From NCBI GenBank assembly GCA_009602735.1, contig WELA01001056.1:1-64000 (forward strand): DNA of 64,000 bases, written 5' to 3'. Each line of letters starts with the position of its first letter. Positions within the stretch are counted from its first letter, which is position 1. The position numbers were made by a program, and so were the translations under genes. Below, piece after piece: positions 12,495 to 41,182 of this stretch. Below the pieces are notes generated by a model, which had not been told where the DNA came from, did no database searches, and was given only the letters and a program-made list of their open reading frames with translations. The DNA comes from Mesotaenium endlicherianum (lineage: Eukaryota).

Positions 12495-12592
12495 GGTGAC
12501 AGGCTGAAAAGATAGTCAGTAAGGGAGGCTGGTCAGGGTCAGTTTCTTTATTTAAAGCTTTTGCAGTTTAATGTTGTCGAGGCGACAACAAG

Positions 12593-13328: not shown

Positions 13329-14710
13329 ACACTGCTCTCTGAAGTGACCTGGCTGCTGGCAATGGAAGCAAATCGACTTTGCTGAGGTTGGTCTCGGCTT
13401 AGTCCTACCACCACCTCTTCCATAGCCGCCTCGAGGGAAACCACCTCTACCTCTAGATTGTATGGCATTATACTCATACTCATATCCATCACCCTGATCA
13501 TCCTCGGCCTAGTCTCCCTCAATTGCATTGTAGGAACCGTGGGCTTTTTGACAATCTTAGACACCAAAGCATTACTCTGGCGCTTGTGATTGAACTGCTG
13601 TTGATCCCAGGCATCAGCATCCTGGATCAAGTCAGCCAGTTTCTCATACTTCTTCTCAGCGAAATGACCAGAGACTTTGGATTTCAAGCCATACCTGAAT
13701 TATGTTATCCAACACCGTTCTGGCAAGTCTGGCCGCTTCATCATGTTCTCCTGGAACTTTTCAGCAAACTCAGCAACTGAAGTGGTCTGCTTCAGTGTCA
13801 GGGAGATCATCGCATAAATAGCTTTCTCCTGCTGGTTGATGACATCAAACTTCTCATGCAACTTCTCGACAAGCTCTACCCACGTAGGGTCACCGAGTTG
13901 CCGAGCCTTACGCTCTCCTTTCCAGTAAAGCCACCAGTCTGCGGCACTGCCTTTCAGTAGCGCACCGGTGTGCCTGACCTTCTCGTAATCTTGCAGTTCT
14001 GGGTAATTCTCCAGCCACTGCTCAACATCCGCGAGAAAATTGATCAGGTAATATTTTCTGTTTTCCTTAGGATCATACTCCTGGGGAGGTTTCGGCTTGG
14101 GCTTACTAGGCCCTCGGCCACCACCACTAGTGGTTTGAGACCCCAGTTGGTCTCTGTCCTCCTGTTGGGACTAATTCATGGTCGCCATTTGCGACTGCAT
14201 TTGAACGAACAATGCTCCTAAGTCTACACTCTGGGGTGGTAGTCTAGCAAATGCAACAGCAGCATTGGCATCGACTCGCTGAGTAGAGTCCTCAACAGTC
14301 CCTCTCGCTCCTGCAGCAGCAATTCCTGCCGCATTCAGCCGGTCACGTATTTGACCTAGGGGTACATTGAGTTGTACAGCAGGAGGTGGGTTCAGAACGT
14401 TGGCCCTTGATGCCATAACTTCTTCAACAGTGCGCTCGTCAGCTGGCCGTCTTTCCCTCCTTTCTGTATCTTCAGCGGCCTTTGCTAATTATTCAGCTTC
14501 TAATCTGGCTCTCTCCTCGTCAGCTTGCTGTGCTGCGACTGCGGCAATAGCAGCTGCCTCATCTGCAGCCTCTCTAGCTGAAGTATCTACCACTGCTTCA
14601 GAATAGGTACGGGTTCCCGCTACATGGCTTTCTGCGTGGTTTTCGACATTCTTGTTATCCTGGTTCTCCATGTGTCGGGAGTTGCTAGTTTGAGACCTTG
14701 TCCTTACCAT
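13329..14710 (-). pseudogene. gag: Degenerate gag of A3
   Basis: Fragments [12 protein letters not shown]..., [12 protein letters not shown]... and [16 protein letters not shown]... with stops, frameshifts and a 30-bp deletion. Confidence 0.93.
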
Positions 14711-14731
14711 ACAAAGAAGACTGTGATAACC

Positions 14732-14743
14732 GCTCCGATACCA
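14732..14743 (-). promoter_or_regulatory. PBS of A3 (tRNA-iMet type)
   Basis: GCTCCGATACCA on + equals TGGTATCGGAGC on -, 1 nt from the LTR end. Confidence 0.9.
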
Positions 14744-14744
14744 C

Positions 14745-15464
14745 TGAAATGAATCGACTTACCAAATAGGCGATTCACAATTAATAAAGATCTTCATATC
14801 AGCAAGTAATCTTTATGGTAATTTCCGTTAATTGGTTAAACGGCAAAAGGACAACACACTAGCAGTGAACAACACTCGTAAATCAAATGCGAGTAAACTA
14901 GCATCAATAATGCAATCAGTAGACTCATACATAAGCAAGGTTAGAAGACAGTGCGTATCAATGGCTTCTCGCCTTGGATTCAGATCTCTCTCAGTAAGCT
15001 GTACAAGAGAGTTGGCCTCGTTTTCCAAATGCGCAACTCGAGAGTAATACCTAGCATATGTACATGGAATGAGTTTACTGTTCAACAGTTAGTGCAATGG
15101 CACCGCCTACCCGGGAGTTAACCAAGTTGGTAGGACCTCGGTTAACCAAATCCACCGCCATCTCCCATCATCCCGAATCGCCATCCATCCTAAGGATGTC
15201 ATCTGGCCATTCATCTAGCACACCACACTTAGATGCATATCTAGGCAGTTCGCTGACCGACTACGGAAGTTAGCTGGCTGTCAAAGAATGTGTCAGCAAG
15301 CTGACCTAAGTTGACTTCAACCTGCTGCTTTCCGGCTGAGTCATTAAACTGATGATTTAATAAAGTCCAGCAGACTCAATATTACCTAAAGTTCAGCAGG
15401 CTGAACTTATTTAACTATATTATTCAAATGAATATTATATCAAGCAATATATTGATTCATTACA
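14745..15464 (-). repeat. 5' LTR of A3 (720 bp)
   Basis: Inverted copy of the A2 LTRs: TGAAATGAATC...GATTCATTACA on +. Confidence 0.95.
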
Positions 15465-17918
15465 GCTGAGGCGTCCCTGCCCTTCTGCTGAAAGCTTTTA
15501 TTTTTTGGCCCTGTGGCTGGGTTTTGGGAAGGCAGTCAGGACATTCCCACCGTCCTGCCATAATTTCTTCTTCATTAATGCAGAAGGTGTGCCAATGGGC
15601 ACCACACTTATCGCTGGTTACCATTGCTTCTTGATCATCCAGCACTTTGCAGCTGGCACAAGGCGTGGCTGGCACCACTTCCTCGGGCTTAGTCTTAATT
15701 GCAGGATCGATATTTGGCAAATGGCACAGCAAACAGTTTTGCACGTGATCTCTCATGGTCTTACCATCAGAACCTTCCAGTTCCAACACACCATTGTCGA
15801 ACGCATGTTTCACGCGTAAGATTATTGCACTTGAATTGGTGTCAATGGTGGTCTTAGTTTGGCGCATGCGGTAGACGAAGTCTCCTTCCTGGATCTGCGT
15901 CATTTGCAGGCGGTAGCTCCCATCTCGCGTCCTGGCGTAACGCTGTGTGTCTCTTTTCTGTGCAATTTTCAGATTGTCCAGGGCAACAGGCATCATGTGC
16001 TCAAATAACACCTTGCGGCGCAACATGACCTTTAACAGTTCATCAGGGTTGTCCAGATCTTTCACCTGCTCAATCTCCAGCTTGATGCTGCTGGGCACAA
16101 CTGGAGTTCTTCTAAACAAAATTTGATAAAGTAAGGAATTCGCCAAAGCTGCTTGCTTGCTAAATTTGCGAGATCGCAGCTCCACCGGTAGCCTAGGCCC
16201 ATGATTGGCAGAGGTTGCAGGTGTGGGTGTTGCTGCGTAAAACCAGCCTTGACGCGATCGCAGCTTGTACAGGCCTTGATCACATCCTCACACTGCTGCT
16301 TCATACCCCTCCACCAGTAAGACAGCTCCAGAAGACTGTATGTCTTCTTGACACCATAGTGTCCAGTAGTCTCATGCATTTCCTGCACCAAAGCTCGTCT
16401 TTTGGTGGGTTCTGGCACTAACTTTTCCTGACCAGTTTCTTCAATCTTGAAGAGGTTATTGCGTTTCTAGCAAAATCTTTCAGCTCGATGGCCTACCTGG
16501 TCCTTTTCTTTTGCCGATAATCCTTCTATATGGACCCCTGTCTTCAACCAATGCATAGTGGCTTGATCTTTCCAAATCTTTGGACTGAACAAAGGTAGGG
16601 GCTCAACTTCTCCTGATGCTACCAATTTAGCCATTTCGGCAAGGCAGGCGGCCAATTCTGTGGGGCTGCTCGGATCTTCGTCTTCTCGAGCTCCTGTTCT
16701 GTTGTCTGCAGATGGGTCCGGGTTCCTGCTGAGTCCATCAGCGTCGTTGTTGAGTATACCTGCTCGGTGTATCAACGTCATCTGGTACTTCTGGGGCTTG
16801 AGAGCCCAACGAGCCAGTCTACCAGTGAGGTCTCCATTCTTCATCAGCCAGAGTAATGGCGAATGATCTGTGATCAGCGTGAAGGGTCTTCTCCATAGAT
16901 ACTCTCTAAAATGTGCAACAGCCCAAACCACTGCCAGTAGCTCTCCTTTGTAGGACGAGTAGTTGCTCTCCGCTCGGTTGTTAGAGCTCGAGGCATAGGC
17001 AATGACGTACTCCTCTCTAGGACTTTCGTCCTGAGTGAGTACTGCGCCAATTCCCACACGACTCCAATCGGTGTGTAGATTGAACGGCTTGGAGAAGTCA
17101 GGTGTTCGCAAGACTGGGGCTGTTACCAGCCGCTCCTTGAGCTCGTTCATGGCCTTCCCCTGGGCTTCCGTCCACACAAAAGATACGTCCTTTTTCAGGA
17201 GTCAAGGGTTTAGCAATTTTGCTATAATCCTTCACAAATTTACGATAGTATCCGCTTAGCCCTAACAGAGCTTTCAACTTAGACACATTCGCTGGTGCAG
17301 GTATCTTGTAAATGGCTTCAGTCTTTACAGCCAGAGGGGACATAGCATTACCGTCCATTGCCAAAGTTCCCTTTGGGCCCAGAAAGCGGTCTTACCTCGA
17401 TCTTCTGTCTTCACAGGGATCTGGTTGAACCCTTGGTGTAGATCGATGATGCTGAACACCTTCCCGGTGGTAGCAATCGCAAAAATCCGCTCTGGTGTAG
17501 GCATCACATAGCTGTCTGGCTTCGTGAGAAGATTCAGTCGTCTGTAGTCTCCACACATACGAGTGGCTGTATAGTTGCCATCCTCGTCCTTCTTGGCAAC
17601 TACAACCGTGGGAGCTCCATGTATTGAGGTTGATTTCTCGATCATGCTGAGCTTGTGCAGCTCCTGGCAAGTTTTCTCCACACAGTCCCATTCGGTCTAA
17701 CTGAGCTTATGCGGCCCAAGTCTGACTGAATTATCAGCAGTTAGTGTGATCTCACACACACTGGCAGTGGTTCTACCAATCTTCTCTTTGGTAAAAGCAA
17801 ACACCTTGCGGTGCTTCTTCAGCAGCCTTTCTACTTGTGCTCTCTGTTGGGCTGAGACCATATTTCCAATGGTGAAGACCTCAGTTGCTGGCTGCTTTTC
17901 CCCAACACAGGCATCCAG

Positions 17919-17927
17919 TAGTTGCTA
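17919..17927 (-). other. Putative stop-codon readthrough signal UAG-CAA-CUA (B1)
   Basis: ...KPKE TAG CAA CTA continues in frame into QLLDACVGEKQPATEVFTIGNMVSAQQRAQVERLL and the RT. The same nonamer occurs at the same position in B2. Confidence 0.75.
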
Positions 17928-20099
17928 CTCTTTGGGTTTAGGTGGGGGCTTTCCGCCCTCATCCTGGCCTTCAGGCTTTTCTGCCTGATTGTTTGGCGGT
18001 GGAGTGGCAGGCTTTGCAGCTTGCTCCTCCGCTATCTCAGGCTTGGCGGCTTGCTTCTTAGGCCTCTTACCTTTCCCGATAGATCGTCGCCTTTCTGGTT
18101 GCGTGGTGTAGGTCAAGCGCCTCCGGATGGGCTACCTCAAGAATCTTTCTTCATCGGCCGCAGTCCAGGTGGTCCCTGTTCCTCCTTCTTCACGTGGTGG
18201 GGGTGGGTTTGGCAAAGGCCACCCTGCTGGATCTGCTCTGGGGTCGATTATCCAACCCCATTCGCGCTCAATGGTAGCTATGCGCGCAACGGTTGTGCCA
18301 AACTCCTCCCTGGCTGGTGGCGTAACCGTCCATGTTTGTGTCATAGTCTGCGATCTTTGGGCCGCAGCTAGTTGTGCGTATACAGCATTTTCTGCTGTTA
18401 AGCGGCTTATGGTGCTTCTTAGCTCTACCAATTCCCTTTTCGACACTGCAAGTGTCCTAGGAGCTGAACTGTCCTTCTCCCATGTTCCAGTGGATGAGAG
18501 ATGCACCATGGGAATGTGAATTCCCAAAGTCATGTCTTTGCGAATTAAGCCATCCTCTCCCTCTCTCTGCAAAATTTCTAGGATAGGTTGCGGAGGAGGA
18601 GCCGTGGTTCCTTTCGGAAACCCTTCTCTCTGAGCTGTTCCCCTGTACTTGAAGTAACGCATCAGCATCCGCCTAAAAGGTGCATTCCCTTTCCGGGCAA
18701 CCTTTCTTGGTCTGCTTGCACAACCGTGAGGATTTCCTTGTGTTGGTTCCACCTTAGCTGTGCAGGCAGCCACTTCCTGCGGTTGTTGTAGCTTATGTGG
18801 GGTAGCTTCTGGTGTTGGAAAACTAACGGTTGGAGTGCTGGATGTAGGCGACCTTAGATCGTTGTAAAGGTCGGCCGGGCTGGGTCCTTCCATCATCAAT
18901 TGGTCGTTCACCCAGTCATCCGTTCTGAGTTCTTGTAGCTCCAATAGTTCCGATTCTGGGGTAGGAAAACGTGGAATTGCTTCCTGAATCTCCTCTTCAT
19001 TGGTGACTGACGGCAGGTCAAACCTTGGAAGGTCTGGCATCTCTGCCTCATCTTCAACTGATTTCTCCGCTCCGGGTGGTGGCGTTTTCCCTTCATTATA
19101 TGTGTTGAGCTTTGCCAAGTTGACGATGGCTGATTGCAGAGCGCTTGCCGCCTTAGCCACTTCCCGTTCCTTGTGTTGTCCGGCGTCTGCGTCCAGCAGC
19201 TGCTCCATGATTTGCCTTGCAATGGATTCAGCTGTTTGACTGGCTGAACCCTGCCGTTGCCCCTTAGCTTGCGGCTCTGGGCTCATCAAGGCAGGTGTTG
19301 TAGACAATTTCTTGTCCAACTCCTCCTGGCGTTCTTCGAATATTACTTCGAGACATATGGTCTTTGCAGACCCTCCAGAATATCCTGAGTTCTGGCTACT
19401 CTCTTCGGCCCATTCACCAAGATTGCACTGGCGTTCTTGCCTTGGTACTTGGTTTAGGCAGTATCCAGTGTTTTCAGCTGTAGGCACAGGAGCCTTCTTC
19501 TCTGATTCTTTTGACATGTCTTGTAACGACGCTCGCTCTGGTGAAGACAATAGACACTCTTGGTTGGCTTCCCAGCTACTTGAGCTTTCCTGCCAATAGT
19601 CTCCGTGCTTAGCTGCTCTTGGGCTAAGGGGGGTATCATACCCTGACCTGGCCTCTTCTGGGGTCTCTTCACGTCTTGATGTCGTTGTTCCGGGAGGTGA
19701 GCTTCCAAAAATCTGGCTGTGTGTGGCGTTTCTCACAGATAATGGGGTGCCATGCGTATTGTCTTGCACTCCTGGTAGCGGTGCTGCTTGCTCAGGTGCC
19801 TGATCCCTCATGGGTGTATCCTCTCTTTCCAGAGGTGCTTGTAATTCATTGGTCCGGTTATCAATCCGGTTTAATAGCTCCTGACATCTCATCAGTTCTA
19901 CCATCCTATCTCCCTTGTATGCTCTGTCTACAGCGGCTTCCGCTGCGTCTCTTTGCACCCAGTATTCTTCTTGTTGCTGATGTGCCATTCTGATAGCCCT
20001 CTGGTCAGATGTTGGCACAACATTGATCCCAATTGTCACTGGTCATGGTCTCGGCATAGGCTTGTCAGTGAAGGTCAACTGTTGCCATGTCATGATTGT

Positions 20100-21060
20100 T
20101 TCCACCAACCAAGTCATAGAGTGCTGCCCGATCATGTTGCCGAAAATCTTTGCAGCCTCATCAAATCCTACAGCACCAGCTTTATGCCGAGCTATGTTTA
20201 CGGGTATTCCAAGGCATTTGCCCTTTTCCACCGCGGTGGGCTCTCTCCACACAGCGTCTCTTTTATAAATGTCTTTGACCATTCCTGGTCCACCTCCTTT
20301 GAAGGCTCGGGTTCCTGGATATGCTGTAAAGGTAGGCAGTACCACTCTTGGCTGACCTGGTTCATTGATGACACACTGTGGATAGGAATCCCTCCAGGTC
20401 ACTGGTCTGGTATGCACCGCCAGTGCCTTTTCCCCTGTCAATGCTGTTGGTGATCGCCGTGTAATGTCTTCCATTTCTCTCAGAACCTCGATAGACATGC
20501 CGTTGGTCCAAAGTATCCTGGCCCTATGAGAGAATCCTCCGTCTTGGCGTCGTTGATTAGCACATGATGGCCCAAAGTGGAGTAAAAAATCAGCCATGGT
20601 TCTCCCGGCTTCATCTGCTTGCGGTCCATTCCTGGATGTACGTTCTCAATCACAAACACAGGTGAGTGATAGTACTGACGTTCCCGCAGTATGCTAACCC
20701 ATCCATCCCCAGTGTTGTGCTCGTGGATCACTGAATCCCATCCTGTTTCCAGCTTGAGAATATGGTTGACAAGGGAATCCAGCAAAGATCCAATCAATCC
20801 TGTAGCCATACAGGTATTCAAGCTTCACGTTCATAATGTTGCCTCCAGCAATGCGCTCGACATTGCTATATGCAGGCGCCAACCTTTGAAAATGATGCAT
20901 TTGCCGCTCTGATTCATGACCTCTTGGAATGCTCGAAAAGCGTGGTCATTGTTGTCCACATACAGGACTTTGGCCACCTGTATTCCTCGCTGGATCAATG
21001 CTATGGTCCCAGAGCCAAGTCCGGCGAATAATTCCAACACCACCACTCCCCTTTTGCGGA
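20100..21060 (-). pseudogene. C5 cytosine DNA methyltransferase domain of B1 (frameshifted)
   Basis: Motif I VLELFAGLG is in the same frame as the protease C-terminus (ORF 20831-21550). Also IV AGFPCQPYSQAG, VI FVIENV, VIII SHRARILW, IX REPTAVEKGKCLGIP and X IFGNMI. Confidence 0.92.
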
Positions 21061-22799
21061 AAGGATCTTCCATCCTGACAATGCCTTGCGGCAACGGCTC
21101 CACTCCAGGCATCAGATTTGCAGAGGAGGTAACTTGGTAGGGTACTGGCAGCAGCTCTTGCGGGCCGTGGTCCCTATTACTTACAGTTTCCAGCTGCTTC
21201 ATGATCCGGGATTGCCATACCAAGGGTGTCGGCATGTTGATGCTTGTATAGCCTTCCTCTTCTTTCTTCATGAGGTCATCGCTGGCTTCTGGGTACCTGT
21301 CGTTAACGTAGCAGTCTAGCAGTCCGTAGTCTGCTTCTCCTATGCAAACCATTTTCACAAGAATTTCTCCTGCCGGCTGTCTATCTGTTGACTGGTAAGT
21401 CACTCTCTGTTTCCGCAGATCAATGATCATACCCAAGGGAATCAGTGCTTCTGTTCCCAAGAGAACATCATAGTTCTCAGCTTCCGTCACTGTGCACTCC
21501 ATGAATAGTGACGCCTCTTCAGGTTTCCCTAAAGTTAATGTGATTTTCACAGGCTTGCGGGTAATCCCACAAGACTTTGAGACTTATCCTGAGGCAGTTC
21601 TCAATTGAAAAGAACTCTCTTTCGAGTCCCTTGTCGTCAAACCTAGAACTTTCACAGCTAGTTTTCCCAAAATGACTGGCTGTGCGCCTGTATCCAACAG
21701 ATGGTTGGGAGCTGCCCAGTTGTTGAAGATCAATGCACCATCCTTATTTTGCACTCTCACGGTGCTAAAATTGGTGGGCAATGAGGCGCTATTTGCACCT
21801 TCCTCAGCTATATCCAGCTGATGTCCGGCCTCTTCAACCGTGAATGGGTAGGTGATGTGCAAATCAGCGAGAGAAAGCAAAGGAGCATGCTGGATCCGGT
21901 GTTCCACCAGAGCCTTCAGCTTCTCCAGTGAAAAACTGAATGTCTTGCACAACCCGGGCCTGGTTTGTCGTGGCTGCGAGATCTTGTTTTCATCCAGAGT
22001 GATCCGGAAAGTCTGAGGAAGCTTCCTAGCATTCCTTGGCACCAGACGGTTGTGATCTGCTTGCTCGGCAGCCGTTGCATCCACAGCCTTTTCAGGCAGC
22101 CGCTTCTCGCCTTTGCAGAAGGTCTTTTCTGCAATGTCTGCATCATAATAGACATTGGGCGCATTTAGTTTTGCAAACTGTGCTTTCAACTCAGCAATTT
22201 CTGCAATCATAGCTTCATACTTCTGGTTACCCTTGCGGTTACCAGAGCCACCCTTTTCTTTCTTTTTCTCTTTGTCTGCCTCTTTCGTGGCAGCATTTGC
22301 CTAGGGCGGCTTTAGATTTGGATTCTTAGACCAGCACTTCGAAAGTGAGACCATTTCCGCTGGTTCGTCTGCTAAAACATTTTGCAGACAGCTTGAACTT
22401 AGGATTTTCATCCCGATCATCACCGGCCATTTCGAACGGTGAACAGGACTCACTGACTCTTCCCCACACGTCTTGCTCTCTGCCCAAATTAGGTGTAAAG
22501 GCTCGTGTGTTATCTGGGTTCTCACCGCTTGCGGAGTTATAATGAGATTCGTCTCTCGACGTTTGCTCACTCCACCGGTTGTCAGTATGCTCAGACGTCT
22601 CAGTTTCTTGTTGACTCTGGCTAGAATTAGAACCTTCTGCAGGCTCCACAGAGTGGTAGAGTCTTCCAATCCTCAACCGCATATCCAGTTGAATTTCTCC
22701 GAGTCCCCTTCCAGGTTGAACACAAGCAGCCTTCACAGGCCTCAATCCCCAACTGACTTGGGAATTCTTGTTCACCTGAACCAATCAACCGAAGTTCTC

Positions 22800-24459
22800 A
22801 GAAGTAGGACAGAAGCGTCTTACTTCCACGCACGCTTTCGCCCAAGTTGAGGGTTTACAGAATTAACAAGTTGGTAGTCTGCAGAAATCACGTCTAAGCA
22901 GCTTAACAGGCAATGTCAAGTTCAGATAAAATCGCCTTTCAAGGCTTTCGCTTAACTTCCACGAGTCACAGCTTACAAAACTCTGAACTGCACATCTATG
23001 CTGGCCTGGTCTGAAATCTTCGCTCAACACCGCGCCTTAACAGCTCTTCACTGCTTGGCTGGGCTCACTCAGTTCTTCGCTGAGAGCTTTTGCTTGTTAA
23101 TACTACTCTTGCTATCAGCAATTCGACAATTGAGAATTCTGAGAACTTGGAAACTAACACAGCACTCACCATTTTAAGTGACCCTCGCACGCTGGTGGCG
23201 TTTGACCCTAGTCTGTGCTAATCTCCAAACAGATTCTATTTTGCAGCTCTCTTTCTACCAGAGAGATCCTCTCTTGGGAACTCCTGAGGTCCAACCTTTC
23301 TATGATACACTTTAGGACAAAATCTTCCAGCGTCGGCAGAAGCGTGGCGCCCTGGCTCTTCTATGGCCTTGGGAACTCCTTCTTCTTCGCGCTCCTTCTG
23401 CTTCTTTAGCTTCCTTCGACAACGATGCGGGCAAGAATGAGGCGGCTTCAGGCAAGACTCGTGCCTTTCACAGGCACCACACATTATCCTCTCTCGAGAA
23501 TGCCAGTGCTTAGCCACCACGCTTAGCTTGCATGCCGTCCTTACCCGGCAGTTCTCTCACAGCTTAGAAGTTGTCATTCAGCATGCATGCATGCATGCAT
23601 TGGAATTGTTGCACGTGACCACTTAGCCTTCCAGCTGACAATCACGCCTATGTGGCTGGCTGACAGCGTTTAGGATGAACGCTCAGGCCGTGACCAGTCA
23701 CCTGAGGGCCTAGCCGAGGCGGCACACAACGCCCTTTGCAACATCCCTGCTGTACTTGGCTTGGATAGCCGATTGATCGGTACCTTTCTTCGCACTTGCT
23801 AGTCTGGCTCATTGCTGGTTCCATGTCCCTAGCCTTTCGGCTGACCACTCGGTCCACATCGCCATCCCCCTCCTGGGTGTGGGTGTGACGTGTCGTGACC
23901 ACTTTGACAGTGACAACGACTTCAACATGACCGCTGACTCGGTCCTCTGGTCGGTGAGTCAATGCTGACTTCCCGTACCTGGGCGGCCGTGACTTGCGCT
24001 GCGCGTTCGGCACCGTCAAGTGGATAGCAGTCGCAACAGTGCATATGTTGATGTTAGCAGCGTTGTGTGATTTGCATGACTCTCTAAGGTGATGATAGCC
24101 GTGGCCCTAAGCTTGTCAATGGAATTGAGCGGCGAAATTGATTTTTTGTGACTTAGTGTCGTGCCTAACAGTGTCGGTCCCTTGGCACGTGCGTAGCCTT
24201 CCAGCACGTGTGCCTTCGGCCTGGTTGATGTGTCGGTGGCCCTCCTCATGTGTGGCAGACATGGTCGATCGACCTTTGCACGTGTGTCGGTGACAAGCCT
24301 TACCAGGGTTAACCCATCCCTGGGTTCCTGAACTTGCACCATGCAGCCTTGACCAACACTCAGGGTGACGTTCTCTGTCACCCGGCTCTCACCATCTGCT
24401 TATCCTAAGACTTTAGCAGAAAATTTAAAAATACTTGCCTTGCCTTAATTCCTCTTACA
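22800..24459 (-). repeat. Family B leader / putative LTR between B2 and B1
   Basis: On the minus strand it begins TGTAAGAGG directly after a PPT. 22800-24038 is homologous to 33500-34775. The inner LTR end and the PBS were not identified. Confidence 0.6.
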
Positions 24460-24470
24460 CCCCTCCCTTT
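24460..24470 (-). promoter_or_regulatory. Polypurine tract of B2
   Basis: AAAGGGAGGGG on the minus strand, ~35 nt after the polyprotein stop and followed directly by TGT. Confidence 0.8.
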
Positions 24471-24506
24471 CAGCTGAGGCGTCCCTGCCTTTCCTGCTGA
24501 AAGCTA

Positions 24507-27500
24507 TTATGTTCCAGCCCTGCGGCTTGGGGTTTTAGGAAGGCAATCAGGACATTCCCATCGTCCTGCCATAGTTTCTTCCTCGCCAATGCAGAAAGTG
24601 TGCCAACGGGCACCACACTTATCGCAAGTTACCATTGCCTCCTGATCGTCCAGCACTTTGCAGCTGGCACAAGGCGTGGCCGGCACCAATTCCTCGGGCA
24701 CAACCCTAACTTTGGGATCAATATTCGGCAGATGGCATAGCGAGCAATTCTGCACGTGGTCTCTCATGGTTTTACCATCAGAACCTTCCAGTTATAACAC
24801 ACCATTGTCAAACGCATGTTTCACGCGCAAGATCACTGCACCTGAACTGGTGTCGATGGTGGTCTTGGTCTGGCGCTTGCGGTAGACAAAGTCTCCTTCT
24901 TGAATCCGCGTCATCTGCAGGCGGTAGCTCCTGTCTCGCGTCCTGGCGTAACGTTGCGTATCTCTTTTCTGTGCAATTTTCAGATTGTCTAGTGCAGCCG
25001 GTATCATGCGCTCAAATAGCGCCTTACGGCGCACCATCACTTTTAACAGTTCATCAGGGCTGTCCAGGTCTTTCACCTGTTCAATCTCCTGCTTGATGCT
25101 GCTGGGCACTACTGGACTTCTGCCAAACAGTATCTGATATGGCGAGTAATTTGCCAAGGCACCCTGCTTGCTAAATCTGTAACCCATAACCAGCCATGGC
25201 AGGGCTAGATCCCAGTCACGCTTGTCATGCTCAAGGCAAAACTTGCGCAAAGCAGACTTAGTGGTTTGCACCATCCTTTCTGCCAGACCATCTGCTTGCG
25301 GATGATCTCTAGACGTAGTGCGATGATCGATGAAGCATCTGTCCAAGAGTTTCTAAAAAGACCCTTGGAACTCAGACTGTTGGTCTGTCAGCACTTCTGC
25401 TGGAGCTCCATGACGCACAATCACACCATTGAGGAATGCTTCCGCGGTCCCTAGGCTCTCCTTAGCAGTCAGAGGGACAACCTCTATCCACTTAGAGAAA
25501 TGCTCAATTATGACCATGATATACTTGTTACCTCGCTTAGATAGCGGTAGCTCACCTGCGAGATCGCAGCTCCAACGGTAACCTAGGCCCATGATTGGCA
25601 AAGGTTGCAAGTGTGGATGTTGCTGCGTAAAACCAGCCTTGACACGATCACAGCTTTGGCAAGCCTTGACCACATCTTCACACTGCTGCTTCATGCCCCT
25701 CCACCAGTAAGACAGCTCCAAAAGACTATATGTCTTCTTGACACCATAGTGTCCAGTGTTCTCGTGCATTTCTTGCACAAGGGCTCGTCTCCTGATGGAA
25801 TCTGGCACTAACTTCTCCTGACCAGTTTCTTCAATTTTGAAGAGGTTGTTGCATTTCCAGCAAAACCTCTTAGCTCGATGGTTTACCTGGTTTTTCTCCT
25901 TCACTAATAGTCCTTCCAAGTGAGTTCCCGTCTTCAGCCAGTGCATAGTAGCTTGATCTTTCCAGATCTCTGTACTGAACAGGGGTAGAGGCTCAGCTTC
26001 ACCTGATGCCACTATTCCAGCCATTTCGGCTAGGCAAGCCACCAACTCTGCTGGGCTGCTTGGGTCTTCGTCCTCTCGAGCTCCTGTTCTGTCGTCTGAA
26101 GATGGGTCTGGAATCCTGCTGAGTCCATCGGCGTCGTTGTTGAGCACTCCTGCTCTGTGCACTACCGTCACTTGGTACTCTTGCAGCTTAAGAGCCCAGC
26201 GAGCCAACTTACCAGTGAGGTCTCCATTCTTCATCAGCCATAGTAATGGTGAGTGATCCGTGATCAGTGTGAAGGGTCTTCCCCACAAATACTCTCTGAA
26301 GTGTGTGACAGCCCAAACCACTGCCAACAGCTCTCCTTCGTAGGACGAGTAGTTGCTCTCCGCTCGATTGTTAGAGCGTGAGGCATAGGCAATGACATAC
26401 TCCTCTCTAGGGCTTGCGGCCTGAGTGAGCACTGCGCCAAATCCCACACGACTCCAGTCAGTGTGCAGATTGAACGGCTTGGAGTAGTCAGCCGTTCGCA
26501 AGACTGGGGCTGTTACCAGCCGCTCCTTAAGCTCGTTCATGGCTTTCTCCTGAGCTTCTGTCCACACAAAAGGTACATCCTTTTTCAGGAGTTCCGTCAA
26601 GGGTTTAGCAATTCTGCTATAATCCTTCACAAACTTACGATAGTATCCGCTTAGCCCTAACAGAACTTTCAGCTTAGACACATTCGCAGGTGCAGGTATC
26701 TTGTAAATAGCCTCAGTCTTCACAGCCTGAGGGGACATAGCATTGTTCCCAATCTCATGTCCTAGGTAAGGCACGTGTGCCTCAAAGAATCTGCACTTCC
26801 CTAGATGCAGCTTCATTTGGAATTTCTCCAAGCGCTGGAACACTTGTCCCAAGTGCTCGAGGTGCTCCTCTATGGACTTGCTGAATACTACCACATCGTC
26901 TATGTATGGTTTAGCGAAATCCAGCCCCTCCAGCACTTTATCCATAGTCCTCTGAAATATGGCTGGGGCATTTTTCAGCCCAAATGGCATTATTGTCCAT
27001 TGCCAAAGTTCCCTTTGAGCCCAGAAAGCAGTCTTACCTCGATCTTCTGCTTTCACAGGGATCTGGTTGAAGCCTTGGCGCAGATCGATAATGCTGAACA
27101 CCTTTCCGGTGGTGGCAATTACAAAGATCCTTTCCGGCGTAGGCATCACATAGCTATCCGGCTCCGTGTAGAGATTCAGTCGCCTGTAATCTCCACACAT
27201 ACGAGTGGCAGTGTAATTGCCGGCCTCGTCCTTTTTAGCGACTACTACTGTAGGAGCCCCATGTACTGAGGTAGATTTTTCAATCATGCGGAGCTTATGC
27301 AGCTCTTCACAGGTTTTCTCCACACAGTCCCATTTTGTCTGACTGAGCTTATGCGGCCCTAGTCTGACTGGGTTATCAGTAGTTAGTGTGATCTCACACA
27401 CACTGGCAGTGGTTCTACCAATCTCCTCCTTAGTGAAAGCAAATACCTTGCGGTGTTTCTTCAGCAACCTTTCTACTTGTGCTCTCTGCTGGGCTGAGAC

Positions 27501-27565
27501 CATTTTCCCAATGCAAAAGTCTCAGTTTCAGGTTGCTTCTCCCCAACAAAGGCATCCAGTAGTTG
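24507..27565 (-). pseudogene. pol: B2 ORF2: RT-RNase H-integrase-PHD finger
   Basis: ORFs 25353-27503, 24792-25346 and 24507-24767 share one frame. Motifs: PYIDDVVVF, LHTDWS, HENTGH...CQSC, WSCD/LTDQ/GLAERM, then CASC...CDKC...HTFC...CPDC. Confidence 0.93.
24543..24671 (-). other. PHD finger (Cys4-His-Cys3) at the integrase C-terminus
   Basis: CASCKVLDDQEAMVTCDKCGARWHTFCIGEEETMAGRWECPDC, including the Trp before the last Cys pair. The B1 copy (~15533-15661) has one Cys replaced by Ser. Confidence 0.92.
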
Positions 27566-27568
27566 CTA
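27560..27568 (-). other. Putative stop-codon readthrough signal UAG-CAA-CUA (B2)
   Basis: ...PAPKE TAG CAA CTA CTG GAT GCC, the same context as B1 17919-17927. Confidence 0.75.
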
Positions 27569-30500
27569 CTCCTTAGGTGCAGGTGGGGGCTTCCCGCCCT
27601 CATCCTGGCCCTCAGGCTTTCTTGCCTGATTCTGGCTCTCAGGCTTTGCAACTTTATTCTTAGGAAGTGGGGTAACAGGCTTTGCAGCTTGCTCCTCCGT
27701 TGCCATAAGTTTGGCAGCCTGTTTCTTAGGCTTTTTACCTTTCTCAATGACGCGTCGCCTCTCCTGCGGTGAGGGGTATGTCAGACGCCTCCGGATGGGC
27801 TGCCTTAGGAACATTTCCTCGTCGACTGCAGTCCAACTGGTCCCGGTTCCTCCTTCTTCACGTGGCCAAGGTTGGTTTGCCATTGGAAAACCTGCGGGAT
27901 CTAACCTAGGGCTGATCGCCCAGCCCCATTCTGGCTCAATAATAGCCATGCGGGCGACGGTCGTGCCATACTCCTCCCTTGCGGGTGGTGTGACCATCCA
28001 TGCCTGCGCTAATGTTTGCGGCCTTTGAGGTGCTGCTAGTCGTGCGAGAAAGGCATCATCTGCTACGGTCAAGCGGCTGATGGTGTTTCTCAGATCCATC
28101 AGTTCCCATCCTGGGATTGCAGGTATCATGGGAGCAGGCTCTTCCGAACTCTGTATCCTAAGATCTGATAGTTGCAACAAGGGCGTGTTCATGCCTGGCG
28201 GCACACTAATGCCCAATGCCATTGCCCTGCGAACCAAACCGTCCTCTCCCTCTCTCTGCAGAATATCCCGCAGAGGCGGAGGAGGTGGAGCTGTGGTTCC
28301 TCGCGGAACGCCCTCTCTCTGAGCCTTCCTTTTATGTTTGAAATATCGCTTTAGCATCCTTCTAAAGATGCGTTACCCTCACGGGCCACCTTCCTTGGTC
28401 TGCTTGCGCAACTTTTGGGCTTTCCTCGTGCTGTCTCCACTTTAGCAGTGCAGGCAGTCACCTCCTGCTGGTGCGGCTATTGTGCGGCTGACTTGGGTTC
28501 TGCCACTGGAAGACTGGCAGAAGGAGAACTGGATGTTGGCGACCTTAATTCTTCATAAAGGTCTGCTGGGCTTGGCCCCATCAGGTGGTCAACCACCCAG
28601 TCGTCTGTCCTCAGCTCCTGTAAGTCAAGCAAATCCAACTCTGGCGTGGGAAAACGTGGAATTTCTTCCCTAATGTCCCCTTCATTGTTGAGTGATGGCA
28701 ACTCCAACTCCGAGAGGCCTTGCATCTCTGCATCCTCTTCCTCCTCCGGCTTCTCTGTTCCAGGAGGCGGCAGTTCTTCATCCCCTCCTGTGTTGAGCCT
28801 CGCCATGTTGATGATGGCTGACTGTAGAGCGAGAGCTGCTTTCGCCACTTTCCCTTCCTTGAGTCGAGGGGCGTCTGCTTCCAGCAACTGCGCCATGATT
28901 TGCCTGGTGATCGACTCAGCTGTGCTGCCAACTGTGTCTTGTGGTTGCCCTTTGGCCTCTGGGCCTGGGCCCATCAGAGCAAGTGTGGCGGGCAATCTCT
29001 TGGCCGTCTCCTTCTTGCGTTCTTCAAAAATCACCTCCAGGCAAATGGTCTTTCCAGACCCTCCAGAATTTCCTGAATTCTGACTGCATTTTTCGGCCCA
29101 TTTGCCAATATTGCACTGGCGTTCTTCATTTCTTGATGTTACCGCGTCTGGGGATGGGCTCCCGAAGACCTGGTCTGGAGCCATGTTTCGTAACTCAGAA
29201 CTGGTATATTCCTCCCATTCCGGCATCCTCCCAAATACTTGGCCGGAGCGTTTTGCAGATGCTGGGACCTCCTGTGATTTGCTCACTGCAGCGCTCACCA
29301 AAGGGTTTGCTGCACCAGTTGCCTGGTCTTCCATGGTTGCGTCTTCTCGCAGCCTCCGCAACTCTCTTTCCAGAGGGTCGCGTAGAGTCACCATTCGATT
29401 GTCAATTTGCGTCAGTAGGTCTAGAAACCTGGTCAGATCCACCACTCTGGTTTCTCTGAGTGTTTCATCTTTGTCAGCCTCAGCTGCGTCTCTTTCAACA
29501 CCATATTCTTTTTGTCGCTGATACGCTTCCCTGATAGCTCTCTGATCAGAGGTTGGCACCACATAGAGTCCAATCGTTACCGGCCTCGGCCTGGGCATAG
29601 GCTTGTCAGAGAACGTCATCTGTTGCCAAGTCATAATCGTCTCTACCAACCATGTCATGGAGTGATGTCCAATCATATTGCCGAATATCTTCCCAGCGTT
29701 GTCCTGTCCCACCATTGCAACAATTTCTTGTGCAATGGAGTTGGGTACCCCCAGGCACCTTTCCTTCTCTTCAGCTGTCGGCTCTCTCCACTGAGCCTCT
29801 CTGTCGTGCACATCTTTGACCATTCCCTGGTCCTCCATTCACGAAAGCGCGTGATCCTGGGTATGCTGTGAAGGTGGGCAGCACCACCCTCGGCCGGCCT
29901 GGCTCGTTGACGACGTACTGTGGGTAGGAATCCCTCCTGATCACTGGCTTGGTTTCCACCATCAGTGCTTCTCCCACAGATACTGCCGTTGGCGTGCGCC
30001 GCGTAATCTCCTCCATCTCCCTCAGGATTTCAATAGACATGCCGTTGGTCCAGAATTGTCTGGCCCGGTGTGAGAGTCCTCTATGCCTGGCGTTGTTGAT
30101 CAATACATGATGACCCAGGGTGGAGTCAAAAACCAGCCATGGATCTCCTGGCTTCATCTGGCTGTAATCCATCCCTGGATGTACATTCTCAATCACAAAC
30201 ACTGGTGGGTAGCGATGCTGGCGTTCTCGCAGCATACTGATGATCTTCACCATCCTTCCCCAGTGTTGTGCTCGCGGGTCATTGAATCCCCTCCCATTCC
30301 CAGCTTGTGAGAAAGGTTGACAAGGGAATCCCGCAAATATCCAGTCAATCCTGTGATCATACAGGTCCTCAGACTTCACATTGAGAATGTTTCCTCCACC
30401 AAGACGCACCACACTAGTAGGCACCAATGCCTTGAAATGGTACATTTGCCGCATCTGACTCATGACCTCCTCAAATGCTGTAAGAACACTCTCATCATTG

Positions 30501-33387
30501 TCCACATACAGCACTTTGGATACCTGGATACCTCGCTGAATCAGTGCGATGGTTCCAGTACCAAGTCCGGCGAACAATTCCAGCACTACTACTCCTCTCC
30601 TGCGAAAAGGATCTTCCATTCTCACAATGCCTTGCGGCAATGGTTCTACTCAAGGCATCAAATTGGCAGCAGTCTTAACTGGATAAGGAACTGGCAGCAG
30701 CTCTTGCGGGCCACGGTCCCTGTTACTCACAGCTTCTAGTTGCTCCATAATCCAAGGTTGCCAAATCAAGGGAGTCGGCATGTTGATGCTGGTGTAGATC
30801 TTCTCTTTGCGTTGCATGATGAGGTCATAATGGTCTGGATACTGGTTATTCACACAGCACTCTAGCAGTCCGTAGTTTGCTTTTCCCGAGCAAACCATTT
30901 TTACAGGAATTTCTCCTGTCGGCTGCCGATCTGTCGACTGGTAAGTCACCCTCTGCTTCCGCAGGTCGATGACCATACCCAGGGGAATCAGAGCTTCTGT
31001 CCCCAATAGAACATCATAGTTTTCTGCCTCTGTCACCGTACATTCTATGAACAGTGACGCTTCCTCAGGTTTCCCCAAGTTTACTGTGATTTCCACAGGC
31101 TTGCGGGTGATTCCACAAGACTTTGAAATCTGCCCAGATGCAGTCCTCAACTGGAAAGGACTTTCTTTCAGGTCCCTTGCCGTCAATCCCAGAGCTTTCA
31201 CAGCTCGCTTTCCCAAGATTACTGGCTGTGCGCCAGTGTCCAATAGGATATTGGGAGCGGCCTAGTTGTTAAATGTCAAAACTCTATCCTTGTTCTGCAC
31301 TCTCACAGTGCTGAAATTAATAGGCAGCAAAGCGCTGTTCGCGCCTTCCTCAGCTAGGTCCAGCTGCTGTCTAGCTTCCTCAATCGTGAAAGGGTATGTA
31401 AGACGCAGATCAGCGAGTGAAAGACAAGGAATGTGCTGAATCCGATGTTCCACCAGAGCTTTCAGCTTTTCTAGCGAAAAACTAAATGTCTTGCGTGGCC
31501 CAGGCTTGGCTTGTCGTAGCTGCGCAATCTCGTTCTCATCGAGAGTGATCCGAAAGGTCTGAGGAAGCTTCCCAGCATTCCTTGGAACCAGACGGTCATG
31601 ATCTGCACGCTCCGCAGCCGTTGCAGCCACGGCCTTCTCAGGCGTCAGCTTCTCGCCTTTGCAGACGGTCTTTTTGGCCACATCTGCATCGTAATAGACA
31701 TTAGGCACATTTAGTCTTACAAATTGAGCTTTCAACTCTGCAATCTCTGCACTCATAGCATCATACTTCTGATTATCCTTCCGGTTACCAGAGTTATCTT
31801 TCTCCTTTTTCTTACCCTTATCTGCCTCTTTCGTGGCAGCATTAGCCCATGGTGGTTTCAGATTTGGGTTCTTGGACCAACACTCATCTTCTGAGTGTCC
31901 CTTTTTACTGCAATGTGCGCATACCTGCGCCTTGCTAACAGACAATTTCTTAGCATCCGGGTACGGACAATCTCTCTTCTGATGTCCTGATTTCCCCGCA
32001 GTTCCAACAGCCCTCTGCTGTCTCAATAGTGTTGGCGTGCTTGGCAAACCTATTGAAAGACCCGCTCTTTTTCTTAAACTGAAAGTTAGAGCTGTTGGCC
32101 TTGGGCTGAAAGGATTCCTCCCTTCTCTCAGGAGCCATAAGCGTCCTGGAAGCCTCCTTGTACCAGACTTTACCTTCCTCGACATGGCGTGCTATTTCAG
32201 CAGCCTCGTCGATGTTCCAGTCGATACCGCGTTTCGCAGATAGGTGCGGCCTCACCTCCCGATCTGTATCTTTACCCAGACACAATAAGAATTTGTCAGC
32301 CACAATCCTAGGCTCATAGATTCCTGCCTTCTTGGCAAGGTCTACCAATCTGGATTTGACCTCCATCACTGTCTCGTTCTTCTGACGGACAAAATGCACA
32401 TAGCGGTGCACTTTAAGACTGCGATCCTTTGGGAATGTTGCTCCAAGAAACTTAAAGAAACGACGCAGACAGTGCTCAGAGTCTAACTGGTCATCCCCAG
32501 CCTCCATATCCCTACGGCAACTAGCCAACGCTTGCGCATGGCTTGCTTCCGTGGTGACACTATCACCATGCTGCCCTGTAACAGGTGCAGCTCTGCGTGT
32601 TACTCGTTCCTGAGCATAAGCAATATTTTCAGACAATTCCGCACACACTTTACGCAATTCTGCGACAGATTCAGCATCATCATCTCGAGTAGCCGCTCGC
32701 TGCTGACCCTCAGTGAGTTGCTTCATGGCATCAGTTAATTCTTGTGTTAGTGCAGCTAAGTCTACGCTCTCAACAGGTGCAGCAGGTATCGTTCTTCCTG
32801 ATGACAAAGCAAACAGGCGGGCTTTCGCAGCCTCTTTCTGGATTTTCAAATCTCTCGCCTTCTTTTGCTCGTCAAACGCCCATTCCTGGGTAAGGTTCTC
32901 ATCCTTCCGAAATTGGCGATGCAGCAACAAGGCATCCTTGTCCAAGTACTAAACCAAGCTTATAAAAGCGACTGACTGAGTGTAAGAAGAATCCTTTCGG
33001 ATTTTCTCAAAGAAGTCAGCCCCAATAGATCTCATCAAACTCTTCGAAAGTGAGACTATTTCCACTGGTTCGTCCACTAAAACACTTTGTAGACAGCTTG
33101 AACTTAGGATTTTCATCCTTATCATCACCAGTCATTTCGAGTGGTGACCAAGACTCACTATCTTTATCCCACACGTCGTGCTCTCTGCCCGAATTGGGTA
33201 CAAAAGCTCGCGCGTAATACGGATTCTCACCGTTCGTGGCAGTATGGCGAGACTCGTCTCTCGACGGTTGCTCACTCCACAGGTTATCCGTGTGCTCAGA
33301 TGTCTCACTTTCTCGTGGAGTCTGGCTTGAATCAGAACCTTCCACAGGCTCCACAGGGTAGTAGAGTCTTCCACTCCTCAACTGCAT
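27566..33387 (-). pseudogene. B2 ORF1 (~1,940 codons reconstructed): Gag, two CCHC knuckles, aspartic protease, C5 MTase, long linker
   Basis: Start MQLRSGRL; VRQKNETVMEVKSRL...KFLLCL capsid motif; CWNCGxSGHQKRDC and CAHCSKKGHSEDEC; LDTGAQPV. Where B1 can be compared, the B2 stops and frameshifts are not shared with it. Confidence 0.88.
29650..30600 (-). pseudogene. C5 cytosine DNA methyltransferase domain of B2 (one +1 frameshift at ~29826)
   Basis: VLELFAGLG (I), YVD (II), GNI (III), AGFPCQPFSQAG (IV, catalytic Cys), DPR (V), FVIENV (VI), SHRARQFW (VIII), REPTAEEKERCLGVP (IX), IFGNMI (X). Confidence 0.95.
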
Positions 33388-33499
33388 GTACAGTTGAATT
33401 TCTCCGGTTCCCCTTCCAAGTTGAGCACCGGCAGCCCTCACAGGCCTCAATCCCCAATTTGCTTGGGAGTTTCTATTCACCTGAACCACAGAACCCAAG

Positions 33500-34775
33500 T
33501 TCTCAGAAGTAGGACGGAAGTCTCTTACTTCCACATAGGCTTTATGCCTTAAGGTTCTTGGGTTTACAGGTGAGCAAATTGTAGTTTGCAGAAATCACAC
33601 TCTAAATAGCTTGACATGCAATGTCAGATTCAGAGAAAATTGCCCTTCAGGCTTTCGCTTAACTTCCACAAGTCAGCTTACAAAACTCTGAAACTACGTC
33701 TATGCTGGCCTGGGTCAAGCTCTTCACTTAACACCGCGCCTTAACAGCTCTTCACTGCCAGGCTGGGCTCACTCAGTTCTTCACTGAGAGCTTAATCTGT
33801 CAATACTACTCTNGGCTTTACCTGTCAATACTGCTCTCTCTCTTCGAGATGCGAATGCGACTTCTGAGAACTTGGAAATCAACGCACAACTCACCATTTT
33901 AAGGCTGCTTCACACACACACTCGTGGCGTTCGGCCGACTCTGTGCTAATCTCCTAGCAGATTCTATTCTGCAGTTNTTATTCTGCAGTTCTCCTTCTTT
34001 TACTGTGAGATTCCCTCTTGGGAACTCCTACAATCCTAACTTATCTATGATACACAGAAGAATCTTCGGTGTCGTCGGAAGCGTGGGGCTTTGGCCCTCC
34101 AGTGGCCTTGGGAACTCCTTCTTCTTCTTCGCGCCCTTCTTCTCTTTCCTTTTGCCTCTTGGCAAAGGTGCGTGAGAGTGAATGACATGTCTCAGACAAG
34201 ATACGTGCCTTTCACAGGCACCACACAGCGTCATCTTTCGAGAGTGCCGTGCTTAGTCACACAACTTAGCTGCATGTCGCCTCTGCCTAGCCATGCTCAA
34301 CTCAAACTCGTAGTCACTCAGCATGCATGCACACCTTGTGACTGTCGCGCGTGGCTGCTTAGCTTCTCAGCTGGCAGTCACGCCTAATTGGCTCATGGCT
34401 AAGAATTCCTGAGCGGCGTGCAAGCAAATGCCACCTGCTCAAGTTTTCCCAACCGGGCGGCCGTAACCTATCTTGGCATTGCAGCCATGACCTGGCTTAA
34501 TCTGCCAGTCGCACAGTACCTGACTTGGTACTTGCTGGGCGGCTCATTGCTGATCCCCAGCTCCTAGCCTCGCGGCTGTCTTGTCAACACCTCCCCCATC
34601 CTTGGGTGTGGGTCACACTGACATTGACCCCTTGCCAGTGGTCTTGACGCCGCCATAACCGCTGACTGCGATGTAATCAGTCAAGTGGTCGGTGAGTCAA
34701 CGTTGACTTTCAGCACTAGGTGGCCGTAGCTTGCGCTGCGCGTGCGACACCGTCAAACGGATAATAGTCGCGACA
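33500..34775 (-). repeat. B2 5' leader / putative LTR
   Basis: Diverged homology to 22800-24038, ending at ...GTCGCGACA (TGT on the minus strand). Confidence 0.6.
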
Positions 34776-39593: not shown

Positions 39594-41137
39594 CATAGCA
39601 GGCGGGGAGAGAAGAGAAAGGATGGACGGTGCGTGGGGAGGATGGGAGGAAGGGAGGGGGAGGAAGGGGGAGCGGGAAATTTAAGGAGGCAAGGGCTGGA
39701 TTGCACGTGCATGCAGTCCATCCTGTTGTCAAGTGCAAGCCCGCGTTTGCACATGGGGCCCGGGTGGGTGCGATTGAGTCAGGAACACATGGGGGAAGCT
39801 GTAGCTCCTGCCACTCAAAGCGGCGCTGAGATTCGAGAGGGAGGAGTCCATCAGATATGCGCGCGTGTGTCTGTGTGTCTGTGCATGTGTGTGTGTGTGT
39901 ATGTGTGTGTGAGGAGAGGGGGGAGGAAGATTGGAGGTTGGGAGTTGCACGTGCGGTGCTCACTTGCGAGAGAGGGAGGGGCGCGCACTCACGCTGGATG
40001 CGAGTGGCTCAATAAGCAACGGCAAGTGGGCAAGGGCCATCGCACGCGAATGCTCCTGCTTCGATGGCTCCTGTCTTCCCACCTACTTGCTCTGCCCGTA
40101 TCTCTCTCCATGTGCATGTGTGGGGATGCGTGTCTGTGTGCGTGTACTGCGAGCGTGCATGCGAGCGTGCGTGCAAGCGTGCGTGCGAGCGTGCATGTGT
40201 CCGTGCCTATCTGAGCGTGCGCGTGTATGGCGGGGGTGTGTGGGTGTGCGGAGGAGGAGGAGGAGCAGGGACGCGGACGACGACGGCGACGCCGAGTGCC
40301 TGCCGCCCGGGTCGTACGAGCTGGTGGAGATGGACGCGCTGGAGATCCTGGCGGAGCACACCCACTTCTGCGAGATCTGCGGCAAGGGCTTCAAGCGCGA
40401 CGCCAACCTGCGCATGCACATGCGCGGCCACGGCGACGAGTACAAGACGCCCGCCGCGCTCGCGCGCCCCGACAAGGGCGCCGTCGACGCCGCCGCCCCC
40501 CGCCCCCGCAGGTGCGCCCGCCATCTGGCCNNCCCCCTCCTCTCTTGTTCCCCCTCATTTGTCCTGCTCTCTCTCCCTCATCCCCCCCCTCTTTTGTGCC
40601 AGAGTGCCTGTGCTGGTGCTTTCTTTCGTGGCCCCTGGCGGTGTGCCTCGTTGTGTTGATTTGCTGTTTGGCATGCAGAAAGCATTGCTCTCGGGATGCT
40701 CCCTCCCTTTTCTGCCATCTGTCGCCAAGCCTGACCGTGTCCCCGCATGGTGTGTTGCTCCACATAAATAATCTCCTCTTGCTCAGACCCGTAGGCCTTC
40801 TGAGGAGGCAAGGTGGAGCTGGGCTGGTTGGGCTGGGGTGGGGTTTCTGCAATGCACACATAAATACTGCCTGCTGCTGCTGCTGCTGCCACCACATGCG
40901 GTCCTGCATGAAGAGCAGGCACGCATGCGGCCTCCATGCGCCGCTTCCATGAGGAGGGCGGCGCTGCTGGTGCTTGTCGCCTGCCTCCTGGCCCCTTGGG
41001 CAGGGCGCAAGGGCGCGCCGTCCTCCTCCTCCTCGTCCTCCACATTGTCTAGCCAGCCTGGGCTGCCACACACAGCTGCTTCTGCAACTAGGCTGGTCGC
41101 CCGAGAACTGACTATCTTGTAAGGGGTGGCGGGTCTT

Positions 41138-41182
<45 letters not shown>

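Follow-up and report, generated by a model that had tools for sequence, protein, structure and literature searches.

Element organization

The window, a 64,000-nucleotide stretch of Mesotaenium endlicherianum DNA (contig WELA01001056.1, positions 1 to 64,000), was found to carry two nested, minus-strand copies of a Gypsy long terminal repeat (LTR) retrotransposon, here called B2 and B1, in which a DNMT3-like cytosine-5 (C5) DNA methyltransferase precedes the reverse transcriptase (RT) and a PHD finger ends the integrase (Table 1). In both copies the order was gag, protease, C5 methyltransferase, spacer, RT, RNase H, integrase and PHD. B1 and B2 were 74-89% alike, depending on the region, and a chromovirus LTR was found in place of the right end of B1. 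Pfam matches on the minus strand of B2 were obtained for an aspartyl protease (30653-31261, E 1.4e-7), DNA_methylase (29774-30649, E 1.5e-17), RT, RNase H and integrase (25356-27521) and PHD (24510-24791, E 1.3e-6), so that DNA_methylase, PHD, RT and integrase were all matched in the window sequence in the order given by an earlier note on this DNA. The Pfam scan found no family in the B2 spacer (27569-29610), and B2 gag matched weakly the gag of relatives P0221 and P0068. A Pfam 'Conotoxin' match on an open reading frame (ORF) of repeat A (E 0.003, below the cut-off) was treated as chance.

Both copies are pseudogenes: B2 is broken by about five shifts of frame and six early stops, and B1 has large deletions. 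Several of the breaks in B2 are specific to that copy, because other copies in the sequencing runs differ from it there. Ratios of nonsynonymous to synonymous substitution rates (dN/dS) between B1 and B2 ranged from 0.07 to 0.14 for gag, protease, RT, RNase H and integrase (protease, 0.07; C-terminal part of gag, 0.13), with 0.39 in the N-terminal part of gag. Chromovirus identity was rejected, as no chromodomain was matched by Pfam at the integrase C-terminus of B2, where a PHD lies instead, and as B2 was placed far from the window's own chromovirus in an RT-based tree. Evidence on copy number and ends was taken from contigs of sequencing runs X1, X7 and X10, of which X1 may derive from the same sample as the assembly; in all three, cover of methyltransferase bins was close to that of protease bins.

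Table 1. Features of the two element copies and their surroundings in the window.
Feature	Position	Strand	Remarks
Copy B2	24039-34775	-	Gypsy element; focus of the analysis
Repeat A of B2	33510-34775	-	natural 5' end; TG start at 34775
gag with CCHC knuckle	31262-33387	-	frameshifted near 33020 and near 31994; stop codons near 32949 and near 31262
Aspartyl protease (LLDTGA)	30962-31249	-	Pfam PF13975, E 1.4e-7; family hidden Markov model (HMM)
DNMT3-like C5 methyltransferase	29611-30604	-	frameshift near 29826; upstream stop at 30650
Long spacer closing ORF1	27569-29610	-	dN/dS 0.16-0.22 in frame (coding constraint)
In-frame TAG, then CAA CTA (27550-27571)	27566-27568	-	predicted leaky stop, ORF1/RT border
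RT (YIDD) and RNase H	26145-27371	-	frameshift upstream, near 27512-27521
Integrase (HHCC, DDE)	24798-25811	-	stop at 25353
Integrase tail with C4HC3 PHD finger	24507-24791	-	core 24540-24671; upstream stop at 24792
Polypurine tract	24460-24470	-	abuts repeat B in the sequence
Repeat B of B2	24039-24459	-	starts TGTAAG; apparently shortened by B1 insertion
Copy B1	15465-24038	-	carries deletions
Repeat A of B1	22805-24038	-	
Methyltransferase of B1	20073-21058	-	
TAG of B1	17925-17927	-	same place and context as in B2
PHD of B1	15532-15660	-	
Chromovirus	4534-13328	+	near-intact; gag is open, pol (1271 aa) has a chromodomain, its LTRs are 95.7% alike
Extra ORF of chromovirus	10749-12494		581 aa, no known family; between integrase and 3' LTR
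Tandem partial chromovirus copy	1-5252		
Inverted chromovirus piece	13329-15464		
STOP2-like C2H2 zinc-finger gene	40250-43300	+	host gene; polyglutamine tracts, intron-rich
Signal peptide peptidase gene	59000-63940	+	host gene; intron-rich

The methyltransferase domain

The B2 domain was intronless and unpermuted, with key residues present in motifs LELFAG, FPCQ, ENV and RAR. The earlier note had reported the full ordered C5 motif set in both copies, and all motifs were indeed found; in B2, however, motifs I-VIII lie in one frame and IX-X in the next (29611-29835), and in B1 the same motifs are spread across several frames. The note's further claim, that the B1 domain is in frame with the protease, applies to motif I, which shares the protease frame in B2 also, but one stop lies in or after the protease in each copy.

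For this domain, dN/dS between B1 and B2, the one pair compared, was 0.17 (bootstrap 0.12-0.25, 320 codons), against 1.2 and 1.7 in off-frame controls. The domain is under purifying selection, and neutral evolution, which the earlier note had named as a possible outcome, did not apply. In 180 family methyltransferase domains the catalytic cysteine was present in at least 164, EN in 164 and RxR in 167.

The methyltransferase was classed as DNMT3-like from profile and structural comparison, and activity is predicted. B2 scored 180+18 bits against the family HMM. When a profile of 38 family sequences was searched against the PDB, DNMT3A ranked top at 82 bits, followed by DRM (46-55) and HhaI (43). 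An AlphaFold model of motifs I-VIII had a pLDDT of 85, and every match listed by Foldseek for this model was DNMT3A, B or C. A bacterial-type reading had arisen from word-indexed searches with the methyltransferase alone, which returned only weak bacterial-type matches (40-56 bits), and from a single-sequence PDB search in which HaeIII and HhaI ranked first; it was dropped after the wider protein search, the family profile and Foldseek. The donor may have been of DNMT3 or of phage type: phage enzymes L005 and L007 scored 76 and 73 bits on the family profile (DNMT3A, 82) and, when a tree was built without host DNMT3, branched beside the retrotransposon domains as their sister group. In the viral contigs searched only phage methyltransferases were found, with RT in 0 of 80 loci.

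The stop between ORF1 and RT

In B2 and B1 the methyltransferase is in frame with RT but split from it by the TAG, whereas in other relatives the two form a single ORF. In both copies the TAG stands in frame with the ORF that follows and has exactly the context UAG-CAR-YYA, which is the tobamovirus readthrough consensus (PMC3159437). The 22 nt around the TAG were identical in B1 and B2, the second-longest identical run in the spacer, and over the 14 codons after the TAG changes were mostly silent (dN/dS 0.18).

Among 19 metagenome loci with the methyltransferase before RT, 16 had a TAG or TAA followed by CAR 205-226 nt upstream of RT, counted in any frame, with the frame confirmed for most. 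L081 and L083 carried the exact UAG-CAR-YYA context, and in L081 it was the sole stop between methyltransferase and RT. No TAR-CAR stop was found in the stretch examined in L110, L118 and L122. Because a shared UAG/UAA-CAR stop separates the methyltransferase ORF from RT, it is likely, on this sequence pattern, that the element produces its methyltransferase in amounts like those of Gag and the RT-integrase-PHD product, through readthrough, at a few percent of that.

The PHD finger

All eight zinc ligands were present in the PHD of B2 and the third cysteine was lost in that of B1, so the C4HC3 finger placed at the integrase end by the earlier note is complete in one copy only. The nearest solved PHDs were those of KMT2C, WSTF, KDM5B and lid PHD1; ING1 took eighth place. 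In PHDs that read H3K4me3, a tryptophan of the cage stands two positions ahead of the zinc histidine, and readers of the H3K4me0 type have none there. In 78 aligned family PHDs this position was glycine in 85%; it is arginine in B2. A preference of the family PHD for unmethylated H3K4 is a prediction only.

Relatives and phylogeny

An unindexed search with the methyltransferase gave 1071 proteins at E<=0.001, and the best 150 of these were characterized: 100 had protease, RT, RNase H or integrase, 49 were methyltransferase-only and one had only a PHD. Integrase was present in 64 of these best 150, and 48 of the 64 ended in a PHD. Among 120 listed RT-integrase relatives, 48 bore a methyltransferase; a PHD followed the integrase in 38 by a strict test and also in P0167 and P0169, seven had none and one was incomplete. 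A C-terminal PHD is a rule of the family and not a single case. The earlier note's coupling of a methyltransferase writer to a PHD reader is upheld in that both lie in one Gypsy element, but it is looser than the note has it: the methyltransferase belongs to ORF1, the PHD sits on the integrase past the stop, and the seven relatives do without it.

The family extends to at least 150 clusters at 50% identity, with named members in Klebsormidium, Mesostigma and Closterium, and dozens of relatives were uninterrupted with the same domain order. Two layouts were found, the methyltransferase lying either before RT, as in B2 and B1, or between RNase H and integrase; the second formed one clade (support 99.6 in the RT tree, 99.8 in the methyltransferase tree). 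Support for the methyltransferase clade was weak in the RT-only tree (66.8) and 0.94 in the RT and RNase H tree, for which 83 of 108 usable rows were kept and 25 non-clade rows were left out. One methyltransferase tree carried no support values; its tip L081_STOP is P0184, to which L081 is only 40% alike.

The B2 domain was 30% identical over 260 aa to GAQ93235.1, a K. nitens protease-DNMT protein. In a tree of 39 retrotransposon domains, including B2 and the K. nitens protein P0237, against 15 phage and bacterial rows, with no host DNMT3, the 39 formed one clade (SH-aLRT 80.7, FastTree 0.40). B2 thus groups with the K. nitens retrotransposon domain; species and architecture, and not a name, were the grounds for equating P0237 with KnitGypsy-Dnmt3. 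P0237 is partial and ends 10 residues past the methyltransferase domain. In P0237, P0283 and P0387 alike, the protein runs no more than about 10 residues past the methyltransferase, which hints at a stop right after the domain in this line too.

Two further groups were observed. P0124, P0135, P0137, P0138, P0142, P0144, P0146, P0151 and P0152 form a PHD-bearing sub-clade with a diverged methyltransferase missed by Pfam, and the catalytic cysteine motif was not found in five inspected members of this P0124/P0135/P0144 type. P0139, P0149, P0154, P0158, P0161 and P0177 carry a Dam adenine methyltransferase and a PHD before the integrase, and these six were the sister group of the methyltransferase clade in the RT trees.

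Split repeats and element ends

The natural 5' end of B2 was placed at the start of repeat A, because in run X1 depth falls at 34775 from about 200,000 to about 80 and 42 contigs depart there into unlike flanks (agreement 0.37). Contigs from both X1 and X7 carried joints that link A, at its end (33508-33514), to the start of B at 24459 or a position at most 14 nt away, and these joints were ragged by a few bases. B1 appears to have inserted into repeat B of B2, because B1's A (start 24038) is only 78% like that of B2. For the family in the window the end of the last B was not seen, and the full structure is that of relatives: L099 and L111 were complete as A-coding-B-A-B and L091 as A-coding-B, and all three of these complete relatives had TG...CA termini in inverted arrangement, flanked by a target duplication of 4 bp. 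The internal B/A junction was the palindrome GACA-GC-TGTC in L082, and in L099 as read; A/B joints were ragged by a few nt between copies. The split ends suggest integration by way of a circle, and foamy virus integrase is reported to cleave palindromic LTR junctions (PMC1180852).

No tRNA primer site was identified after repeat A; TGGTGAG at 33897 resembles a splice donor as much as a primer site. In both copies the pattern ATG/GTGAGT ... TTCAG/G (33897-33482 and 23172-22780, minus strand) resembles the borders of a leader intron that would extend across the end of A, and no spliced read across this candidate was listed.

Proposed mechanism and alternatives

The two copies are best explained, with a probability of about 0.55, as decayed members of a Gypsy-DNMT3 family that combines a leaky stop, particle-loaded methyltransferase acting on the element's own cDNA, PHD-steered integration and a circle route. 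ORF1 (Gag, protease and DNMT3-like methyltransferase) would end at the stop, and readthrough would add RT, RNase H and an integrase tipped by the PHD; intact copies would thereby load many methyltransferase molecules per particle. The enzyme would methylate CpGs on new cDNA of the element, and the PHD would steer integration to nucleosomes with unmethylated H3K4. An ordinary B-A...B-A cDNA would be circularized and reopened by integrase at the internal B/A palindrome. We infer the readthrough, the activity and substrate of the enzyme, the histone preference and the opening of circles at B/A alike. A broader version, considered rather unlikely as a whole, would extend this to an old Gypsy clade throughout the green lineage, with a DNMT3 surplus made at a leaky stop and methylated cDNA circularized before a PHD-guided DDE integrase reopens a palindrome in the LTR. 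If true, nature would offer here an example of integration that routinely passes through circles, and methylation of CpG-containing end sites may even control the choice of cut site.

A number of observations weigh against the proposed mechanism. The family looks largely silent in the polyA run, where 35 of 6,908,460 reads (about 6% of the run) matched B2, none at 99% identity or above, mostly on repeat A and almost none on the methyltransferase. ING1, one of the top PHD matches, is an H3K4me3 reader, and seven of the 48 methyltransferase-bearing relatives have no PHD. Many protein relatives (e.g., P0064, P0068, P0074, P0087) have no stop between methyltransferase and RT, and the stop-bearing lineages did not form one clade in the RT tree. 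Fourteen of the 16 stop-bearing loci belong to the single family of L082, with CAA-CCC/CCT and mostly an in-frame ATG, a context that suits reinitiation equally. The TAG may accordingly be an ordinary terminator, with RT-integrase made from a downstream ATG (27503) by reinitiation or splicing; this was judged somewhat unlikely, given the exact CAR-YYA in B2, B1, L081 and L083 and the mostly silent changes from stop to ATG (only 14 codons), even with an in-frame ATG 62 nt downstream in B2 and B1 and, in 13 of the 14 loci of the L082 family, an ATG two codons past the stop. Of the ends, the mirror product A-B-A-coding-B, expected of a symmetric two-LTR circle, was seen at none of five independent left ends (L082, L091, L099/L100, L101 and L111), all of which were a single A. 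That only A-coding-B-A-B and A-coding-B were observed would be accounted for by a DIRS/PAT-like route that does without a two-LTR circle, the internal B/A junction serving as the template from which a full-length A-to-B cDNA has its two ends rebuilt; de Mendoza et al. compare the structure to DIRS (PMC5890265). This route is a tentative alternative with the odds leaning against it: the polypurine tract lies directly against B, the usual arrangement in LTR elements, the A/B joint is ragged as end-joining gives, and the A-coding-B form of L091 with its duplication fits a one-LTR circle opened at B/A, although B-B recombination gives it too. Membership of DIRS/PAT proper was rejected. Those elements have a tyrosine recombinase, no DDE integrase and no target duplication, whereas B2 has a DDE integrase and all three complete relatives have 4-bp duplications.

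No element-specific footprint of self-methylation was found in CpG transitions or CpG content. Transitions between B1 and B2 were CpG-biased (odds ratio 1.7), but this is no proof of self-methylation because one of three chromovirus comparisons showed the same bias (odds ratio 1.8), a separate earlier chromovirus comparison showing none; and observed/expected CpG was 0.58 in B2, 0.54 in B1 and 0.43 in the chromovirus, not lower in the element. In PMC5890265, CG methylation activity is demonstrated for SymbioDIRS-Dnmt3 only; when the K. nitens domain was tried in yeast no methylation resulted, which the authors considered inconclusive. Methylation of the element's own cDNA, as suggested in the earlier note, stays plausible by analogy with SymbioDIRS-Dnmt3 (PMC5890265), but no such footprint was found. 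These results, the surplus expected of Gag-level expression, and the retention of the domain with an altered catalytic motif in P0124, P0135, P0144 and their kin would fit a methyltransferase that acts in trans on host or rival DNA, or that serves in the particle as a non-catalytic binder of nucleic acid or S-adenosylmethionine. That is held to be unlikely, as the catalytic residues are so widely conserved and the domain lies within the polyprotein in both positions, so that it would be packaged with the cDNA. A neutral passenger, or an artefact of assembly or nesting, could be imagined from two broken, nested copies, but is very improbable in view of the dN/dS of 0.17, the dozens of uninterrupted relatives of the same order and the even contig cover of methyltransferase and protease.

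Surroundings

GACGCCT precedes two chromovirus LTR starts (4521-4533, plus strand; 15465-15477, minus strand), with no polypurine tract there; a target preference or chance is possible. The LTR at 15465 interrupts B1 just before the B1 polypurine tract. STOP-type zinc fingers, such as the one in Table 1, are plant-lineage genes.

Significance

Why retrotransposons carry an enzyme that normally silences them is a question raised in the discussion of PMC5890265. The family supplies many naturally uninterrupted, divergent methyltransferases and two domain positions for comparison, and its PHD-less branches, catalytically altered branches and Dam-bearing sister group serve as comparison sets. The stop gives a clear prediction on enzyme dose. 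Split ends with target duplications make circle integration, which is disputed for retroviruses, testable in an alga.

Comparison with known systems

The element very likely belongs to the published KnitGypsy-Dnmt3 kind and is not a new class, because its methyltransferase falls in one family with the K. nitens protease-DNMT protein. The novelty of the lineage, raised as a question in the earlier note, is not supported: the lineage includes GAQ93235.1, and the repeats are split as in KnitGypsy-Dnmt3. That element likewise has the domains of a Gypsy retrotransposon together with a DNMT3-like domain that contains no introns and evolves under purifying selection (Ka/Ks < 0.2), and it has DIRS-like A-coding-B-A-B repeats (Fig. 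4 legend, PMC5890265). It differs in that its DNMT lies in the Pol ORF with RT, where B2 and B1 have a TAG between the two, and in that PMC5890265 describes one species, against at least 150 clusters and two methyltransferase positions here. The main text of PMC5890265, taken apart from Fig. 4c and the main supplement, mentions no PHD, homeodomain, readthrough, target site or duplications and junctions. The split-repeat layout is thus already known, and target duplications and junctions are absent from that text; in the open-access literature searched, three features appear new: the C-terminal PHD as a rule of the family, which the figures of PMC5890265 may nevertheless show, the stop that is probably leaky, and ends that look like those of integration by way of a circle.

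LTR retrotransposons with a DNA methyltransferase and a chromodomain have been described as EpiLTRs/DAM-LTRs (10.64898/2026.05.21.726589). They too pair a DNA methyltransferase with a histone reader, a role that is predicted for the PHD here, but theirs is a chromodomain, with Dam and a DNMT sister to DNMT4, whereas the present element has a DNMT3-like domain, a PHD and no Dam. PHDs in retrotransposons are already known (PMC9940879, PMC6673714, 10.1101/2021.11.30.470311); none is mentioned in the accessible parts of PMC12344493 and PMC6338049. Chlamydomonas Gypsy-7a_cRei resembles the present element in having a PHD in a green-algal Gypsy polyprotein, and its insertions are biased to intergenic DNA; no methyltransferase is listed for it, and the legend places the PHD before the integrase (PMC9940879). 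The tobamovirus signal is shared in its exact post-stop consensus by B2, B1, L081 and L083, although the stop here, with its predicted readthrough, follows protease and methyltransferase and not gag directly (PMC3159437).

The arrangement also recalls one outside retrotransposons. Animal DNMT3A joins its catalytic domain to an ADD finger, and the present family likewise pairs a DNMT3 catalytic domain with a finger predicted to read unmethylated H3K4; the difference is that here the finger sits on the integrase, in a separate protein product.

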